Of a stretch of 64,000 bases of DNA, positions 41,543-62,403 are shown piece after piece (positions within the stretch are counted from its first letter, which is position 1; each line of letters begins with the position of its first letter). This DNA comes from Polyangiales bacterium (GTDB taxonomy: Bacteria > Myxococcota_A > Polyangia > Polyangiales > Polyangiaceae). The notes beneath the pieces were generated by a model. That model was given only the letters and a program-made list of their open reading frames with translations, was not told where the DNA came from and made no database searches. Where the stretch lies: contig JBBRLQ010000009.1 of NCBI GenBank assembly GCA_038231275.1, forward strand, positions 96,001 through 160,000. Reading direction: 5' to 3'. The position numbers and the translations under genes were made by a program.

Positions 41543-43021
41543 ATGTCCGAGTCGCAGCAGCGGTACCGCGTCGTCGAGAAGCTCGAGTCGGGCGGCATGG
41601 CCGAGGTTTTCCGCGCGGAGAGCGAGGGGCTGCAGGGCTTCAAGAAGCAGGTCGCGATCAAGCGCGTCCTGCCGCACCTGTCCGAGAAGAAGAAGTTCAT
41701 CTCGATGTTCCTCGACGAGGCGCGCCTCTCCGCGCAGCTCTCGCACTCGAACTGCGTGCAGGTCTTCGACATCGGCGTCGGCGACAACGCGTACTTCATC
41801 GTCATGGAGTTCGTCGACGGGGCGAACCTCAAGGCCATCGCCGAGGCGATCAAGAAGAGCGGGCGCGACTTCCCGGTTCCTGCGGCGGCGCTCATCGCGC
41901 TCGAGATCACGAAGGGCCTCTCCTACGCGCACGAGATGCGCGACCCCAACGGGATGGATCTCCACATCGTGCACCGCGACATGTCGCCGCCGAACGTGCT
42001 GGTGACCAAGTACGGCGAGATCAAAATCGTGGACTTCGGTCTCGCGAAGGCGAACTCGCAGCTCGAGAAGAGCGAGCCCGGCATCATCAAGGGGAAGTTC
42101 TCGTACCTGTCGCCCGAGGCGGCGATGGGGCAAGAGGTCGACGCGCGGACCGACATCTTCGCGGTCGGCATCATCTTGTGGGAGCTGCTCGCGGGGCAGC
42201 GGCTGTTCTTGGGCGAGACCGATTTCCAGACGGTGAAGAAGGTCCAGCAGGCCGTCGTCCCGTCGATCTCGAACATCAACAAGCGCGTGCCGCCGGAGCT
42301 GGAGCGCATCATCAACAAGACGCTCGCGCGCGAGCCCGCCGCCCGTTACCAGACGGCGCGTGATCTCGGGATGGAGCTGTCGAAGTTCCTCTTCTCGAAC
42401 GGCCAGCCCGTGAGCACATTCGACATCGCGTCACTCGTCGTCGGCGCGATGAAGGACAAGGCCAAGCATCGCGCGCCGCAAGGATCCATCATCGACAAGC
42501 TCATCGAGGAGGCGCTCCTCGAGTTCACGTCGCTCACCGACGACGCGCGCGAGGCGGCGCAGAAGCTCTCCGGGTCGAAGAAGCCGCCGCCCCTCGCCGC
42601 CGGCTCCGCGCCGCTGCGCGCCGATCAGTTCGTGGATCCGACGAACTGGGCGAAGGAGATCTCGCTCGGTGACATCACCGGCGGTGCCGACGACTCGATT
42701 CGTGCCTCGCTCCCGCCCGACGTCTTCCAGGCAGGGAATCTCTCCGCGCTCGAGGACGAGCCGCACTCCTCGCCGATGCCGTCGCCGCGCGGTGGAACGC
42801 CGCAGCCGTCTCCCGCGATGCAGGGGTCGCCCGGCTCGAACCCGCACCACATGAGGTCGTCGTACCCGCCGCCGATGATCCCGATGCCCCGGCACGGCAT
42901 GCAGCAGGCGCCGCCGCAAAAGAAGGGCGGCCTCGCCGGCGCGATCGTGGGCGTCGCCGTGGTCCTGTTCGCCGCCGCCGCCGCTGCCGCCGCGTGGTTC
43001 ACGCACTTGATTCCGCACTGA
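41543..43021 (+). CDS. Ser/Thr protein kinase with C-terminal TM
   Basis: GGMAEV, VAIK, HRDMSPPN, DFG, KGKFSYLSPE. Confidence 0.95.
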   Translation: MSESQQRYRVVEKLESGGMAEVFRAESEGLQGFKKQVAIKRVLPHLSEKKKFISMFLDEARLSAQLSHSNCVQVFDIGVGDNAYFIVMEFVDGANLKAIAEAIKKSGRDFPVPAAALIALEITKGLSYAHEMRDPNGMDLHIVHRDMSPPNVLVTKYGEIKIVDFGLAKANSQLEKSEPGIIKGKFSYLSPEAAMGQEVDARTDIFAVGIILWELLAGQRLFLGETDFQTVKKVQQAVVPSISNINKRVPPELERIINKTLAREPAARYQTARDLGMELSKFLFSNGQPVSTFDIASLVVGAMKDKAKHRAPQGSIIDKLIEEALLEFTSLTDDAREAAQKLSGSKKPPPLAAGSAPLRADQFVDPTNWAKEISLGDITGGADDSIRASLPPDVFQAGNLSALEDEPHSSPMPSPRGGTPQPSPAMQGSPGSNPHHMRSSYPPPMIPMPRHGMQQAPPQKKGGLAGAIVGVAVVLFAAAAAAAAWFTHLIPH

Positions 43022-43034
43022 AGTGCGGAATCAA
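43007..43034 (+). terminator. Perfect inverted repeat spanning the kinase stop codon (terminator-like)
   Basis: TTGATTCCGCAC-TGAA-GTGCGGAATCAA, followed shortly by CCTTTGTTTG. Confidence 0.6.
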
Positions 43035-43040
43035 ATGACG

Positions 43041-43170
43041 CCTTTGTTTGTGTGGGCTTGCAGCCCCTCCACGCCGGACGGCGTGGAGACCTCCCCGCGT
43101 CGCCCTTCGGGCGAAGTCGCGGGGCGCGACGGCGGACCCTGACGACTTGCCGGGGGGGAGAATTTTGGGG
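43041..43170 (+). repeat. Structured intergenic element, copy 1 (three hairpins)
   Basis: Collinear with the reverse complement of 62062-62217; shared CCTTTGTTTG, loops and GAATTTTGGGG. Confidence 0.75.
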
Positions 43171-43185
43171 TATGCGAGGGGGGCC

Positions 43186-43950
43186 GTGGTGGGTTCTCGC
43201 AGTATTCGACTTTTTTTTGGGGGGGCGCTCGCTGGGGGGGTCCTCGTGGCGACGGTGCCGGTGGCGGAGGGGCGGGGAGGGGCGTGTCCGAGCGGGATGG
43301 CGCTGATCGCTCCGCCTGAGGATGGGGCGCTGACGGAGCGGTATTGCATCGATCGGTGGGAGGCGTCGCTCGTCGAAGTGACCACCCACGGGAGCGCGCC
43401 GTTCTCGCCGTACGAGATGGTGAAGGGGCGGACTGTGAAGGCTGTCTCGCGCTCGGGCGTCGTTCCGCAGGCGTACCTCTCACGCAACGAAGCCGCCGCC
43501 GCGTGCAAGGCGTCGAAGAAGCGTCTGTGCACCGAAGAGGAGTGGACGACGGCGTGTCAGGGCAAGCGCCCGACCACGTACCCGTACGGCGACACCGCCC
43601 GCCCCGGCTCGTGCAACGACAGCGGTACCGCGCCGCTCCCCGCGCTCTATCCGGAGAACGACGAGGCCGCGCACTCGTTCGAGCCGATGAACGATTCACG
43701 CCTCAACCAGCAGCCGAACACGCTCAGCCGCACGGGCGCGCATCGTCGCTGCACGAACAGCTACGGCGTCTTCGACATGGTCGGCAACCTGCACGAGTGG
43801 GTGGACGATCCGAACGGCACCTTCCGCGGCGGCTACTACCTCGACACCCACATCAACGGTGATGGGTGCCGTTACCGTACGGTCGCGCACGACGCCGCGT
43901 ACCACGACTATTCGACCGGCTTTCGCTGCTGCGCCGATCTCGCGCGTTAG
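43186..43950 (+). CDS. Secreted formylglycine-generating-enzyme (SUMF1/FGE-sulfatase) family protein
   Basis: CPSGM, KRLCTEEEW..AC, YPYG, GVFDMVGNLHEW, RGG, GFRCC; start approximate. Confidence 0.9.
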   Translation: MVGSRSIRLFFGGALAGGVLVATVPVAEGRGGACPSGMALIAPPEDGALTERYCIDRWEASLVEVTTHGSAPFSPYEMVKGRTVKAVSRSGVVPQAYLSRNEAAAACKASKKRLCTEEEWTTACQGKRPTTYPYGDTARPGSCNDSGTAPLPALYPENDEAAHSFEPMNDSRLNQQPNTLSRTGAHRRCTNSYGVFDMVGNLHEWVDDPNGTFRGGYYLDTHINGDGCRYRTVAHDAAYHDYSTGFRCCADLAR

Positions 43951-57957: not shown

Positions 57958-59184
57958 ATGAGCCCCGCAAAAAAAGCGGCGAAGGAAAAGAAGAAGAGCG
58001 CGAATCCCAAGCCCAAGCCCGGGCCGAAACCCAAGCCCACGGCGAAGGCCTCGAAGAAGACCTCGCCGCTCGCGTTGTCCAAGGGGGACGCGCCGCCCAA
58101 GGACGTCACCCGCGATCTCTTCCTCGTCTGGCGCGCGCCGCGCATCGGCATGGCCAATCCGCAGCGGCTCACCAATGCGGCGTGGACATGGCTCGCGCGC
58201 CACAAGGAGATGAACGCGTACGTGGCGAACGCGCACTTCGCCGGGCCGAGCTCGATGGCGGTGGGACCGTGCTTCTGCGCGAACCGCTTCGGTCAGAGCA
58301 TCACCGACCTGCCCGACGGCCGCGTCTTTGCCATTGCGGGCGAGCACGAGGACTACTACGACCCCGACTTCTTCATCTACAACGACGTCATCGTCACGGA
58401 CGCCGCGGGGCGCGTGGAGATCTTCGGCTATCCGCGCGAGGTCTTTCCCCCGACCGATTTCCACACCGCCACGCTCGTCGGAAATCGCATCATCGTGATC
58501 GGGTGCCTGGGGTACCCGTCGCAGCGCGATCCTGGCACAACGCCGGTCTTTGCCGTCGACACGACCACGCTCGCGATCACGCGGCTCACGACGACCGGAA
58601 TGCTGCCCGGGCGAATCTTCAACCACGAGGCCGAGCTCGCGGCGGACGCGCGCACGATCGTGATCCGCAAGGGCGAGCGCGCGATGCTCGTGCACGGGGC
58701 CGAAAAGATCTGCGACAACCACGACGACTGGTCCCTCGATCTCGAGACCCTGACGTGGAGACGGCTGACCGAGCGCCGGTGGCCGGTGTGGGAGCTCGCG
58801 CGCGCGGACGGCGAGCGCAACCACCTCTGGGAGATCGAGGGAATGTCGTGGCACGCGGACGGCAAGACCCCGTTCGATCGCGCGCAATTCGCTGCGCACC
58901 GAAAGGCGCTCGGCCGCGTCCCTGACCTCGATGTCTTCGCGACGCGCTTTTCACCGCCCATCGCGCACACCAAGGTCGAGGACGCGGAGGCGCGGCACGA
59001 CACCACGACCATCGAGGCCGCGGGCATGCTCGTTCGCTATCGGCAGGAGTCGCGATGCGTGCGCATCACCGTGTGCGGCCGCCTCCCGGAGGAGACGGTC
59101 GCAACACTGGTGGACGACGCGCGGCGGAAGCTCGAGGTGCTCGAGCAGTTCGCCTACGAAGCGCGCCTCGTGCCGGCATTCTGA
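57958..59184 (+). CDS. Hypothetical protein with Kelch-like beta repeats
   Basis: Lys-rich N-tail; RFGQSITDLPDGR..IAGEHEDYYDPDFFIYND, FPPTDFHTATL. Confidence 0.7.
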   Translation: MSPAKKAAKEKKKSANPKPKPGPKPKPTAKASKKTSPLALSKGDAPPKDVTRDLFLVWRAPRIGMANPQRLTNAAWTWLARHKEMNAYVANAHFAGPSSMAVGPCFCANRFGQSITDLPDGRVFAIAGEHEDYYDPDFFIYNDVIVTDAAGRVEIFGYPREVFPPTDFHTATLVGNRIIVIGCLGYPSQRDPGTTPVFAVDTTTLAITRLTTTGMLPGRIFNHEAELAADARTIVIRKGERAMLVHGAEKICDNHDDWSLDLETLTWRRLTERRWPVWELARADGERNHLWEIEGMSWHADGKTPFDRAQFAAHRKALGRVPDLDVFATRFSPPIAHTKVEDAEARHDTTTIEAAGMLVRYRQESRCVRITVCGRLPEETVATLVDDARRKLEVLEQFAYEARLVPAF

Positions 59185-61970
59185 CGACGACGACGGCGGA
59201 GCGCGCCGAGCATCGCCAAGCCGCCGAAGCCCACGAACGCCCACGACGGGGTCCGCTTCGCGTCGACCGTGCGGCAGCCGCAGCCGCCGCTGTCGCCCGT
59301 GCCGCCGCTTCCGCCGTCGGCCGCCGCGTCCGAGCCAGGGTTCCCGGAGTCGCGTCCGCTGCCCGAATCGGTGCCGCCGCTGCTTCCGGAGTCGGCGGTG
59401 GAACCGGAGTCGTCACCGGAGCCGGAGTCGACGCCGCCGCTGCTCCCGGAGTCGTTGCCGGAGCCGGAGTCGTTGCCGGACCCCGAGTCTTTCCCGGCGT
59501 CGGCGCCCGAGTCGGAGCCCGCGTCGGAACCGGCGTCGGAACCGGCGTCGGGACCGGCGTCGGTGCCTCCGCCGCCGCAGACGTTCGCGGTGCCGCCGCC
59601 GCCGCAGGTCTGCGGTGCGGCGCACGCGGCGCCGCACGAGACGGTCCCTCCGCAGCCGTTGGGGATGGTCCCGCAGTTGTCGGGGGCGGGGCAGGTGGTG
59701 ATGGGCGTACAGCCGCAGACGTTCGCGGTGCCTCCGCCGCCGCAGGTCTGCGGTGCGGTGCACGCGGCGCCGCACGAGACCGTGCCGCCGCAGCCGTCAG
59801 GGATGGTCCCGCAGTTGTCGGGGGCAGGGCAGGTCGTGATCGGAACGCAGCCCGTGACCGACACGGTCGCCGTCGCGGCGTGGACTGCTGACGGGGCCTT
59901 GCCGATGACCGTGAAGGTCACCGGGCTCGCGGTCACCGGGGCGCCAGCCGCGGCCGTCAGGGTCAACGTCGAGGTCGCCCCGGCCGTCACGCTCGCAGGC
60001 AGGAACGCGCCGGCCACACCGGTCGGCAAATCCTGCACGTTGAGCGCGATGCTCTCGGCGACACCTTTGGTCGACGCCGTGGTCACCGTGAACGTGGTCG
60101 TCGCGCCCGGGGCGACGGTGCGGCTCGCGGGCGACAGCGAGATCGAGAAGTCGTTCGCGCCGCAGTTCGGGAACTTCGTGCTCGCGATGAACGTCCTCCA
60201 GTTCGAGGCGCTGTTCACCTGGTAGAGCTCCTGCGTGTACCAGAAGGTGCAGTCGTCGACCGGATCGACGGTCATGTTGCTGTAGTCGCCCCAGCGGCCC
60301 TGGGTCTGGTTGCCCGCGCCGGTGTCGATGACCGCTTCGGACTGGCCCATCGTTCCCGCGGGATCCGCCGCGGTGCGACCGGTCCACGCGATCGACGGGT
60401 TCGTCGTCGCGCTCGAGATCGAGTAGCCGAGCGCCATGTCTTGCGCCATGTCCTGCGCGAGGCTGCCCATCCAGCGCCAGTTCGCGTCGCTCGGCGCGTA
60501 GGTGCCTTGCTGGAAGAGGGTCGGAGTGCCGGCAGGCAACCGGATCTCGTACCAGCGGATGCCGCCAGTCGCGCCCGCCACGACCGAGTGATTGACCATC
60601 AACGCCTGATGCGTCCCGAAGTTGCGGTAGGTGAACCGGAACATCAGGCGGTCATCGAGCCCCGCGATCTTGGCGTTGCTCTTCTCGGGGACGCAGTCGG
60701 CGCCTTGGGTCGAGTAACAGGTGGGGGTGAAGTTCGCGACTTGGAGCGCGGTCGGGCCGGTGAGCTTGCTGTTCGACGGCGTCGTCCAATCCAGCTTGAG
60801 CGACCAGAGGTCCACCTGGTTGTAGGTTGGGCCGCACTGGCTGTAGTCGAACTGCATGAACCAGCCGGGCGCGCCGACCGGCGGGTGAATCTTGCCATCG
60901 AGGCTGATCGGCAGCGCGCCGCCAATCTGGAAGGGTTCGACCGGAGGCGGTCCGCCGTCCGTCGGGCACGCGGTCACCGCGGGGAACGGCTGGACGAAGC
61001 ACTGCTGCGCGGCCGGCTGGCCCGACAGCATCTTCACGCGATCGTAGGCGCAGAAGTCCGCGCCCTTGAAGTCGTAGCTCCCGGCGTTCGAGTCGAAGAT
61101 GTTAAACGTCGCGTAGTAGCCGTCCGGCCAGATGCCGAACTTGCCGTAGTCGTTGATCGAGTAGTTGTATTTGAAGTCGTAGAGCCAGTAGGCGCCGGTC
61201 GGGTCGGCGGTCTTCGAGACGGCGATGCACTGGTAGGACGGGCCGCCCGCCGTGTTGGCCCCGGGCAGCGAGAACTGGGTGATGAACCAGCGATCGGCGA
61301 GCTGGTCATAGACGACCACTGGATCGCCGTCGTTGTTCGTTCCGCAGCCGTTGCCGGCGTTGGTGCCGACGTAGCCGGTCCAGAGGTTGACGAGCGGTTT
61401 GCCCGCCGCGGCGACGGTGCCGTTCTTGTTCCAGATCTCGAGGTTCGTGTTGACGGTCTGGACGAAGTGGTTCGGGCCGACGGCGCCGTTGGTGTCCGGG
61501 GGATAGCCGCCGAACGCGGTGCCGCTTTGCCCCGAGAAGTTCAGGAGGGTCGCCGGCATGCTCGAGATCGGGACCTCGGTCTGGGCGATCGGGTCGACGG
61601 TCAGGCCGTGGAGCGGGAGGTACGTGCGCGGCGCCTTGAGCGGCCGGTGCTCGCGCCCCTCGTCCTCCTCCTCCCTGACCGGCACACTCGGTGCGGTCGC
61701 GAACGGCACCGAGCTCTCGGCGTGGGAGACTTGGATCGAAGGGTTCCCCTGCACCGCAGATCGCGACGTGTCGGCCGGTCCATAGCTCGGCGACCGCTCG
61801 CTCACCGCGCCGCGCGTCGGCGCCGTGGTCGCTACGCGATCTGCCTCCTGCGTCTTCCCGACGTCCGGCCCGTTCCCCTGCGAGCATGCAGCGGCCACCG
61901 ACACGACACCCAGCGCCACGAGCGCGAGCGCCCGACCTTTGGTCCCCGCCACGAACGAAAATCTACTCAC
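59154..61970 (-). CDS. Large secreted lipoprotein with Ig-like domain, Cys-rich repeats, DSG linker and MYXO-CTERM-like anchor
   Basis: Lipobox AAAC; PPDTNGAVGPNH, GDPVVVYD, DYGK, RWGDYS; GCGC-TM-RRRRR tail. Confidence 0.85.
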   Translation of the reverse strand: MSRFSFVAGTKGRALALVALGVVSVAAACSQGNGPDVGKTQEADRVATTAPTRGAVSERSPSYGPADTSRSAVQGNPSIQVSHAESSVPFATAPSVPVREEEDEGREHRPLKAPRTYLPLHGLTVDPIAQTEVPISSMPATLLNFSGQSGTAFGGYPPDTNGAVGPNHFVQTVNTNLEIWNKNGTVAAAGKPLVNLWTGYVGTNAGNGCGTNNDGDPVVVYDQLADRWFITQFSLPGANTAGGPSYQCIAVSKTADPTGAYWLYDFKYNYSINDYGKFGIWPDGYYATFNIFDSNAGSYDFKGADFCAYDRVKMLSGQPAAQQCFVQPFPAVTACPTDGGPPPVEPFQIGGALPISLDGKIHPPVGAPGWFMQFDYSQCGPTYNQVDLWSLKLDWTTPSNSKLTGPTALQVANFTPTCYSTQGADCVPEKSNAKIAGLDDRLMFRFTYRNFGTHQALMVNHSVVAGATGGIRWYEIRLPAGTPTLFQQGTYAPSDANWRWMGSLAQDMAQDMALGYSISSATTNPSIAWTGRTAADPAGTMGQSEAVIDTGAGNQTQGRWGDYSNMTVDPVDDCTFWYTQELYQVNSASNWRTFIASTKFPNCGANDFSISLSPASRTVAPGATTTFTVTTASTKGVAESIALNVQDLPTGVAGAFLPASVTAGATSTLTLTAAAGAPVTASPVTFTVIGKAPSAVHAATATVSVTGCVPITTCPAPDNCGTIPDGCGGTVSCGAACTAPQTCGGGGTANVCGCTPITTCPAPDNCGTIPNGCGGTVSCGAACAAPQTCGGGGTANVCGGGGTDAGPDAGSDAGSDAGSDSGADAGKDSGSGNDSGSGNDSGSSGGVDSGSGDDSGSTADSGSSGGTDSGSGRDSGNPGSDAAADGGSGGTGDSGGCGCRTVDAKRTPSWAFVGFGGLAMLGALRRRRRQNAGTRRAS
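59577..59852 (-). repeat. Two near-identical 138-bp tandem repeats (46-aa Cys-rich unit)
   Basis: GC.PITTCPAPDNCGTIP.GCGGTVSCGAAC.APQTCGGGGTANVC twice; CCGCAGACGTTCGCGGTGCC at 59575 and 59713. Confidence 0.9.
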
Positions 61971-62061: not shown

Positions 62062-62217
62062 CCCCAAAATTCCCCTATTTCCCTGCCCATGCTTGCTCGC
62101 CCCCCGTCGCCCCCCGTCGCCCCCCTCGCGCCCTGCGCGAGTGCGCCAAAGGCGCCGCAGGGGAGGCTCGCCGCCCTCCGGCGGCGAGGGGGCACGCAGT
62201 GCCCCACCAAACAAAGG
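62062..62217 (-). repeat. Structured intergenic element, copy 2 (three hairpins)
   Basis: Reverse complement is collinear with 43041-43170, with compensatory stem changes. Confidence 0.75.
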
Positions 62218-62225
62218 AAACCCCA

Positions 62226-62274
62226 CCCGCTGCATGGGTTCGTTCGCAAAGGCGAACGAACCCCATGCAGCGGG
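62226..62274. other. 22-bp near-perfect inverted repeat
   Basis: CCCGCTGCATGGGTTCGTTCGC-AAAG-GCGAACGAACCCCATGCAGCGGG (one bulged C). Confidence 0.8.
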
Positions 62275-62403
62275 ATGGAGTGCGATGGAGTGCGAGCCAG
62301 TGCGAGCAAAATGAGCCCACAGATCGACAAACGAAATTAACTTTGGTTGAAGTGGTGGCTCGTCCGCCGCGCACGATCGCACGGCGGACTTGGATCGGAC
62401 TCG

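Follow-up and report, generated by a model that had tools for sequence, protein, structure and literature searches.

A mobile-DNA-like family of four-hairpin repeats behind gene ends in seven Polyangiaceae genomes

Among described systems, the closest to the element reported here are small structured repeats and insertion sequences (IS) linked to hairpins. RUP of Streptococcus pneumoniae is a MITE mobilised by IS630 (PMC2229807). REP sequences, which also occur as BIMEs and REPINs, are defined by a GTAG or GTGG located 0-2 nt 5' of a stem of 7-20 bp (PMC6006769). IS1272 and TnSha1 are associated with hairpins at gene ends, and IS1272 deletes a pre-existing target stem-loop upon insertion (PMC5678879, PMC4923244). 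In SPRITE, another repeat of S. pneumoniae, the mover is unknown and co-option as terminators has been proposed (PMC3049150). The locus described here lies in a window of 64,000 nucleotides (the whole stretch of DNA analysed) from a Polyangiales bacterium. An initial annotation, made from the letters of the window, had described a covarying intergenic element with three hairpins, and read it as a cis-regulatory RNA or sRNA family, or as a REP/MITE-like element. Both copies were found where it had put them, at 43041..43170 on the plus strand and 62062-62217 on the minus strand; their parts and the genes around them are given in Table 1.

Table 1. Parts of the two window copies and neighbouring genes (positions in the window)
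Feature	Position	Strand	Remarks
Ser/Thr kinase gene	41543..43021	+	Pkinase, E 1.9e-37
TGA stop of the kinase gene	43019-43021		with the gene's final codons, left arm and loop of copy 1 H0
Copy 1 H0	43004..43034	+	right arm reverse-complementary to the end of the kinase gene, 15/16 pairs
Copy 1 T-rich linker	43041..43053	+	
Copy 1 H1	43054..43066	+	loop TGC, GCA on the antisense strand
Copy 1 H2	43067..43088	+	most variable stem
Copy 1 C-rich unpaired linker, conserved	43089..43096	+	near-invariant alignment columns; G-rich on the antisense strand
Copy 1 H3	43100..43114	+	loop TTC, GAA on the antisense strand
Copy 1 H4	43116..43130	+	
Copy 1 variable G-rich tail	43131..43170	+	outside the conserved core
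Gene downstream of copy 1	43186..43950	+	FGE-sulfatase domain; predicted start
Copy 2 H0	62231..62269	-	built from intergenic DNA between divergent genes
Copy 2 T-rich linker	62206..62217	-	
Copy 2 H1	62189..62205	-	
Copy 2 H2	62167..62188	-	
Copy 2 H3	62143..62155	-	
Copy 2 H4	62126..62140	-	
Copy 2 tail	62062..62125	-	G-rich simple repeat
MYXO-CTERM protein gene downstream of copy 2	59154..61970	-	

The element had been thought to be present twice, which proved wrong. A profile built from the two copies retrieved 43 copies (E<0.5) with nhmmer from the genome of the window (G000; 9.28 Mb, 69% GC) and none from the reversed genome, and the covariance-model search that the initial annotation had suggested gave 42 copies with a corrected model (R3). 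A 44th copy, diverged but with a strong leading hairpin, lies at C7:150838 below profile detection. The core, of about 90 nt, consists in this order of a linker, the hairpins H1 and H2, a C-rich unpaired linker, and the hairpins H3 and H4. Of the three hairpins reported initially, the third corresponds across the family to H3 and H4 as separate stems, which makes four in total: the long third hairpin appears when copy 1 is folded by itself to minimum energy, and copy 2 as DNA folds with H3 and H4 separate. With their leading hairpins, both copies reach fold energies of z -5.5 to -8.0 relative to shuffled sequences. The GAATTTTGGGG tail, which had been counted as part of the element, is not a family feature, since it occurs three times in the genome, each time behind a copy on contig C9 (window 43160-43170, window 62062-62072 and C9:234689). 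The tails behind H4 are G-rich and often simple-repeat, with a GC skew of +0.27 versus 0 in controls, positive in 35 of 42 copies. The copies of G000, whose median identity is 65% with a closest pair at 88%, are old.

In relatives, model R3 found 37 copies in G001, 26 in G002, 21 in G003, 6 in G015, 50 in G176 and 2 in G173, and no copy in 35 of the 40 other genomes of the same family. Among the genomes searched, the element was thus found only in seven of Polyangiaceae, G000 and these six. None of 150 genomes of the order had a copy with model R2, whose structure was out of register in H2-H4, and none of 150 genomes of the phylum with model R3; because the scans of the order and the phylum scored the best 28 candidates per genome, weak relatives can escape them. 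Viral contigs, PLSDB plasmids and phages gave no match to one exact pattern and one 96-nt query.

The initial observation that the stems differ while pairing is retained extends to the family as a whole. In an alignment of 56 copies, changes on both sides were found in 18 of 25 pairs, 86% of the cells were paired in the corrected structure, and none of 500 shuffles matched. A second set of 56 copies, fitted to the model and partly overlapping the first, gave double changes in 21 of 25 pairs and 96% of cells paired, again with 0/500 shuffles matching; pairing was lower in shuffled and slid controls than in the real alignments. Since the stems vary in length, RNAalifold detected no more than H1 and H4 when given a plain MAFFT alignment. 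The covariation is therefore real, but the conclusion that had been drawn from it, namely selection on structure, is weakened by the possibility of template switching. This process is described as correcting inverted repeats of bacteria in one step (PMC5941160); it would yield compensatory changes in H1-H4 without selection, and covariation may thus arise without an RNA being under selection.

Several features point to the antisense strand as the one that folds. Over six genomes, H1 and H3 have 171 triloops, of which 144 are C-TNC-G in sense, that is C-GNA-G in antisense, and 2 are C-GNA-G in sense; hairpins behind stop codons used as controls had an antisense C-GNA-G in 10 of 203 cases. Triloops of the d(GNA) type with a C:G closing pair are reported to be especially stable in DNA (PMC3201870). 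Stem mismatches in sense are more often A-C than G-T in G000 (19:4 and 16:3 in two parses, p 0.003-0.004), and weakly, not significantly so in G001 (7:3, p 0.34), and therefore correspond to wobble pairs on the antisense strand. This strand also folds better in 39 of 42 copies as DNA and in 35 of 42 as RNA. According to these sequence features, the conserved fold is probably that of antisense single-stranded DNA; alternatively, it may exist in an antisense RNA. No bias with respect to the replication strand was observed (17/41), judged with a weak skew proxy.

The sites themselves differ between sister species. Of 35 loci examined in G001, 25 have two-sided synteny to G000, where eight have a copy at the site or nearby and 17 have none; at the latter, G000 has a gap of less than 400 nt in 13 cases and more than 1 kb of other DNA in four. 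Ten of 14 loci of G002 are syntenic, and all ten are empty in G000. Copy 1 is common to G000 and G001 (L047), and one exact 653-nt contig of reads, probably from the source sample, spans it, with no empty allele. G002 lacks copy 2 (L353). In G001, its ortholog (L351:326-1500, C11) is interrupted 4 nt past the foot of H2 by a group II intron that contains a reverse transcriptase (RT) frame and has an internal deletion; H3 and H4 follow on the far side of the intron. Since the intron is truncated, its scores (RT 260 bits, Rfam 36.8 bits) are both below cut-off. As group IIC introns are reported to insert behind DNA hairpins (PMC1702495, PMC3898094), this site suggests that H2 can fold in vivo, in this case in the sense strand. 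A short tandem repeat lies just upstream of the H0 of copy 2 (window 62280-62310, minus strand), and is also found in G001 and G002 (L353) whether the element is present or not.

The placement of the copies relative to genes is equally marked. According to our own gene calls in G000, 34 of 43 copies start no more than 60 nt behind a same-strand stop codon, versus 22.6% for random intergenic placement, 37 of 43 follow a same-strand gene, versus 35.5%, and none lies inside a called gene. Two copies lie behind tRNA-Pro genes. The next gene, on the other hand, is in sense for 20 of 42 copies versus 65% by chance, and the 71 proteins that flank copies have no common function. These results bear on the reading as a leader RNA in cis or an sRNA family. 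It is true that the covariation is strong, that the RNA folds are stable and that both window copies precede likely secreted proteins, as had been noted: the downstream products have signal-like N-termini and, behind copy 2, a MYXO-CTERM, and the FGE-sulfatase protein is likely secreted. This description holds for the window copies but not for the family; the two downstream genes are bystanders, and their secreted character is a coincidence. Place behind stops, a next gene that is in sense less often than by chance and unrelated neighbours argue against a leader RNA. Moreover, sites are not kept in sister species, mismatches in sense are A-C rather than G-U, the loops are not of RNA tetraloop types and, like the mismatches, fit antisense DNA, and no promoter-like site was found at the copies. 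Rfam gave no match at gathering within the window, and six loci searched at E<=1 matched only the group II intron and, at chance level, one miRNA. The regulatory-RNA reading is thus largely refuted, and we regard it as most improbable. The option of a REP/MITE-like element is supported by copy number, by filled and empty sites and by IS ends around some copies. Altogether, our results make it very probable that we are dealing with mobile DNA rather than with a regulatory RNA.

The same core is joined to the ends of three unrelated insertion sequences, one of IS1182 and two of IS630 type. In G015, G001 and G000, inverted cores enclose pieces of a deleted IS1182 transposase between CTAG-flanked ends, and paired units with IS630-type ends and TA flanks are present in G001, G002, G173 and G176, so that TA or CTAG is found on both sides of paired units. 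The first IS630-type end occurs 96 times in G176, and an intact IS630 with these ends and without core is L278; the second occurs in G000, G001, G002, G003 and G173, and L310 is the corresponding core-less IS630 end. All three types of ends bound genuine transposases (IS1182 at L064, 336.8 bits; IS630 at L278, 261.8 bits; IS630 at L310, 139.2 bits), and none of these three loci carries the core. One unit (L241) is bounded on the left by an IS630 end and on the right by one of IS1182. In all three kinds of junction, H0 is a palindrome formed by folding of the IS end and lies about 11-17 nt upstream of H1. IS-borne cores are up to 98-99% identical between loci; therefore, these composites moved recently.

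That the core belongs to the native IS1182 end was rejected, because 158 related IS1182 loci that share this terminal repeat, 129 of them with both CTAG-flanked ends, all lack it; both intact IS1182 of G000 are without a core between their ends. One of these two, L064 (G000:C94:167-1853), has CTAG flanks and adjoins an IS630-type end. At L037 (G000:C110), a 155-bp unit bounded by CTAG is present on either side of an intact IS1182 (314.5 bits), its two copies being inverted, and this group stands directly before a core with CTAG in the linker. G176 also contains stand-alone palindromic mini-elements of 55 bp that have IS630 ends and are flanked by CTAG at left and right (L274, L279, L285), and many of its 96 IS630-type ends lie at contig breaks.

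The long hairpin that had been noticed in front of both window copies is real and general: a strong H0 is present in 26 of 42 copies versus 2.5% of 1500 control gene ends. It covers the stop and at least three coding bases in 15 of 35 copies versus 0.7% of controls, with arms of up to 25 bp that are wholly coding sequence, the stop being the loop. Among 7412 gene ends, 70 have a stop-covering hairpin, and 19 of those have a core. At six empty sites (L044, L045, L052, L339, L344, L349) no H0 was found, and the filled sites have one; however, one empty site (C1:406671) has H0 without a core, which counts against our best explanation. In three orthologous pairs (L033/L338, L016/L331, L026/L225) the H0 arm agrees in each genome with the local version of the gene end; in the first pair it follows a two-base synonymous change. 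In copy 1 the arm is one synonymous letter behind the gene, and the G001 ortholog has a perfect H0 of 16 bp. In G003, one inner H0 of IS630 type stands after C-TAA, T-TGA or C-TGA, with a right arm matching each. The match of the arms to their own gene ends across species argues that the arm was copied from the gene and later re-copied. The view of H0 as a frozen insertion scar, based on copy 1 and L339, was dropped because H0 tracks the gene in the three other orthologous pairs. A tract of 5 T in 8 is present in 19 of 42 linkers, and a terminator scan finds copy 2 and misses copy 1; termination is therefore plausible for some copies only.

Other repeats were seen at gene ends in G000. A second multi-hairpin family behind stops has a stop-covering leading hairpin (C1:632820, C10:132741, C12:21575, C23:9555, C27:3918, C8:244342), and two palindromic families are found at C1:511050, C14:17023, C20:82140 and C5:278025, and at C5:120682, C7:78843 and C18:102010.

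We propose, at slightly better than even confidence, that the element was carried by insertion sequences, followed by erosion and fold-back rewriting of its leading end. The four-hairpin core would spread as cargo inside miniature transposons made of IS630 and IS1182 ends, on which transposases would act in trans. The CTAG and TA targets, together with the purging of insertions in coding sequence, would leave survivors at stop codons. The IS end before the core would then erode and be overwritten by fold-back copying of the last codons of the host gene: template switching at this hairpin-rich site might lengthen H0 into the gene, shorten its inner part and keep the stems paired. The H1-H4 fold would matter in antisense single-stranded DNA, and in some copies H0 and the T-rich linker together may serve as an intrinsic terminator. 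Carriage is seen in the ends and flanks of paired units; for solo copies, we infer it from intermediates.

Several results count against this proposal. An IS-type end is absent upstream in 35 of the 43 G000 copies and present in 8; downstream, it is absent in 39 and present in 4, and 4 copies, in two paired units, have terminal inverted repeats at both ends. Both window copies are without IS ends. At solo sites no target duplication was seen, in relatives that are about 15% diverged. The stop upstream is TGA in 19 of 34 copies, and TGA corresponds to neither of the two targets, TA and CTAG. In five of six IS630-type sites the stop is TAA at the filled site versus TGA at the empty ortholog, although 71 of 76 stops are conserved otherwise. 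Neither the 158 IS1182 nor the 14 IS630 loci include an intact IS with the core, and the G176 assembly, with its 96 IS630-type ends, gave no IS630 transposase. Finally, copy 1 belongs to a clade of 17 rows from unrelated loci (97/90 support, from few columns of a short alignment) with no IS-labelled member; class labels in this tree come from loose patterns, and a few rows are mislabelled, for example L013 and L007.

These points leave room for an independent, REP-like unit of single-stranded DNA that inserts itself through a nuclease or is captured during break repair, IS carriage being secondary hitchhiking. H0 would then be made at insertion by folding back the DNA end to which the unit is joined, whether gene, tRNA or IS. 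One core on three unrelated IS ends, at gene ends and behind the two tRNA-Pro genes agrees with such a unit, as do the clade of solo copies only, the GNA loops in antisense, the all-coding H0 arms with the stop as loop and the stop codons that often differ between filled and empty sites; in addition, GGAG stands 0-2 nt before the antisense foot of H2 in 37 of 42 copies. However, the RAYT partner that the initial annotation had named as a thing to look for was not found. Y1 transposases gave one locus in G000, none in G001, G002, G003 and G015 and three weak ones in G176, and no core lies near any of these, nor near any Y2 or RT locus tested. The absence of replication-strand bias also speaks against this unit, and H0, which changes after insertion, need not be an insertion scar. 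On the whole we consider it unlikely, though the main rival. The single Y1 locus of G000 (L038, C70) is an IS605-type TnpA with, by eye, a TnpB-like ORF on a small phage-like contig, and five IS91-type Y2 transposase matches lie on other small contigs.

Retroposition was also considered, in which a reverse transcriptase would copy the transcribed 3' region, the cDNA being the folded antisense strand and slippage leaving the simple-repeat tails. The sense orientation in 3' regions (37/43), the G-rich tails and the identity of the folded strand with the one a cDNA would be are all in its favour. Yet none of the six RT loci of five genomes adjoins a core, except where the core is an intron target; G002, with 26 copies, has no RT match in an assembly that is 83% complete; target duplications were not seen at solo sites; and RT copying leaves the IS ends unexplained. 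Retroposition is therefore very unlikely.

A further reading, which we also hold to be unlikely, is that the core is a self-standing module of single-stranded DNA that caps free DNA ends, be they of a gene, a tRNA or a transposon, and is neither a REP nor an IS end. If this were true, each capped end would be folded back into a custom hairpin, site-specific terminators would be minted from coding sequence, unrelated IS ends would become new MITEs, and the module would represent an undescribed route of spread as well as a natural source of multi-base changes in last codons.

Whichever of these readings applies, the family carries a warning: strong covariation in intergenic hairpin families can stem from mobile, self-correcting DNA and not from a working RNA. 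It also constitutes a resource of more than 180 copies (model matches from the seven genomes) that includes orthologous sites as well as filled and empty ones, and is suited to asking if terminators arise, and terminal codons are altered, through template switching in hairpins at gene ends. In the literature searched, as far as its text was accessible, the element family is not described and no structured cargo common to three unrelated IS ends was found; the main text of PMC3733652, in its accessible part, contains no myxobacterial terms, and the supplements of PMC3733652 and PMC6006769 might list a relative.

Carriage by insertion sequences, our preferred reading, brings the element close to RUP, with which it shares a length below 200 bp, a non-coding, structured and intergenic nature, the lack of its own transposase and, in the paired units, IS630-type terminal repeats with TA flanks. 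It differs from RUP in being GC-rich, in having one core common to three unrelated IS ends and 35 of 43 local copies without terminal repeats, and in a leading hairpin drawn from host coding sequence (PMC2229807). Like REP, BIME and REPIN sequences, it forms extragenic multi-copy hairpins behind stops with loops of DNA type (PMC6006769, PMC3733652), and some copies are inverted doublets (in G000, two pairs on C13 and one each on C27 and C46). In contrast to REP, GT[AG]G stands 0-2 nt before the foot of H1 in 2 of 42 copies and overlaps the stem in 35, the hairpins are four in tandem, copies are about 65% alike, and no TnpA-REP (RAYT) gene is flanked by copies. The subset of copies inside CTAG-flanked IS1182 remnants recalls IS1182-family ends, and the link with hairpins at gene ends recalls IS1272 and TnSha1 (PMC5678879, PMC4923244). 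Here the situation is the reverse of that of IS1272: empty sites are mostly without a stem-loop, and filled sites have gained one. SPRITE, finally, is similar in its 30-40 or so copies near gene 3' ends, in its stem followed by a T-rich tract, and in its unknown mover and proposed use as a terminator. It is AT-rich with a fixed stem, whereas in our element the terminator-like stem differs at each site and is followed by four more hairpins (PMC3049150). The copy set described here is suited to the question of how small structured repeats, whether SPRITE-like or orphan REP-like, spread when no enzyme is known for them.
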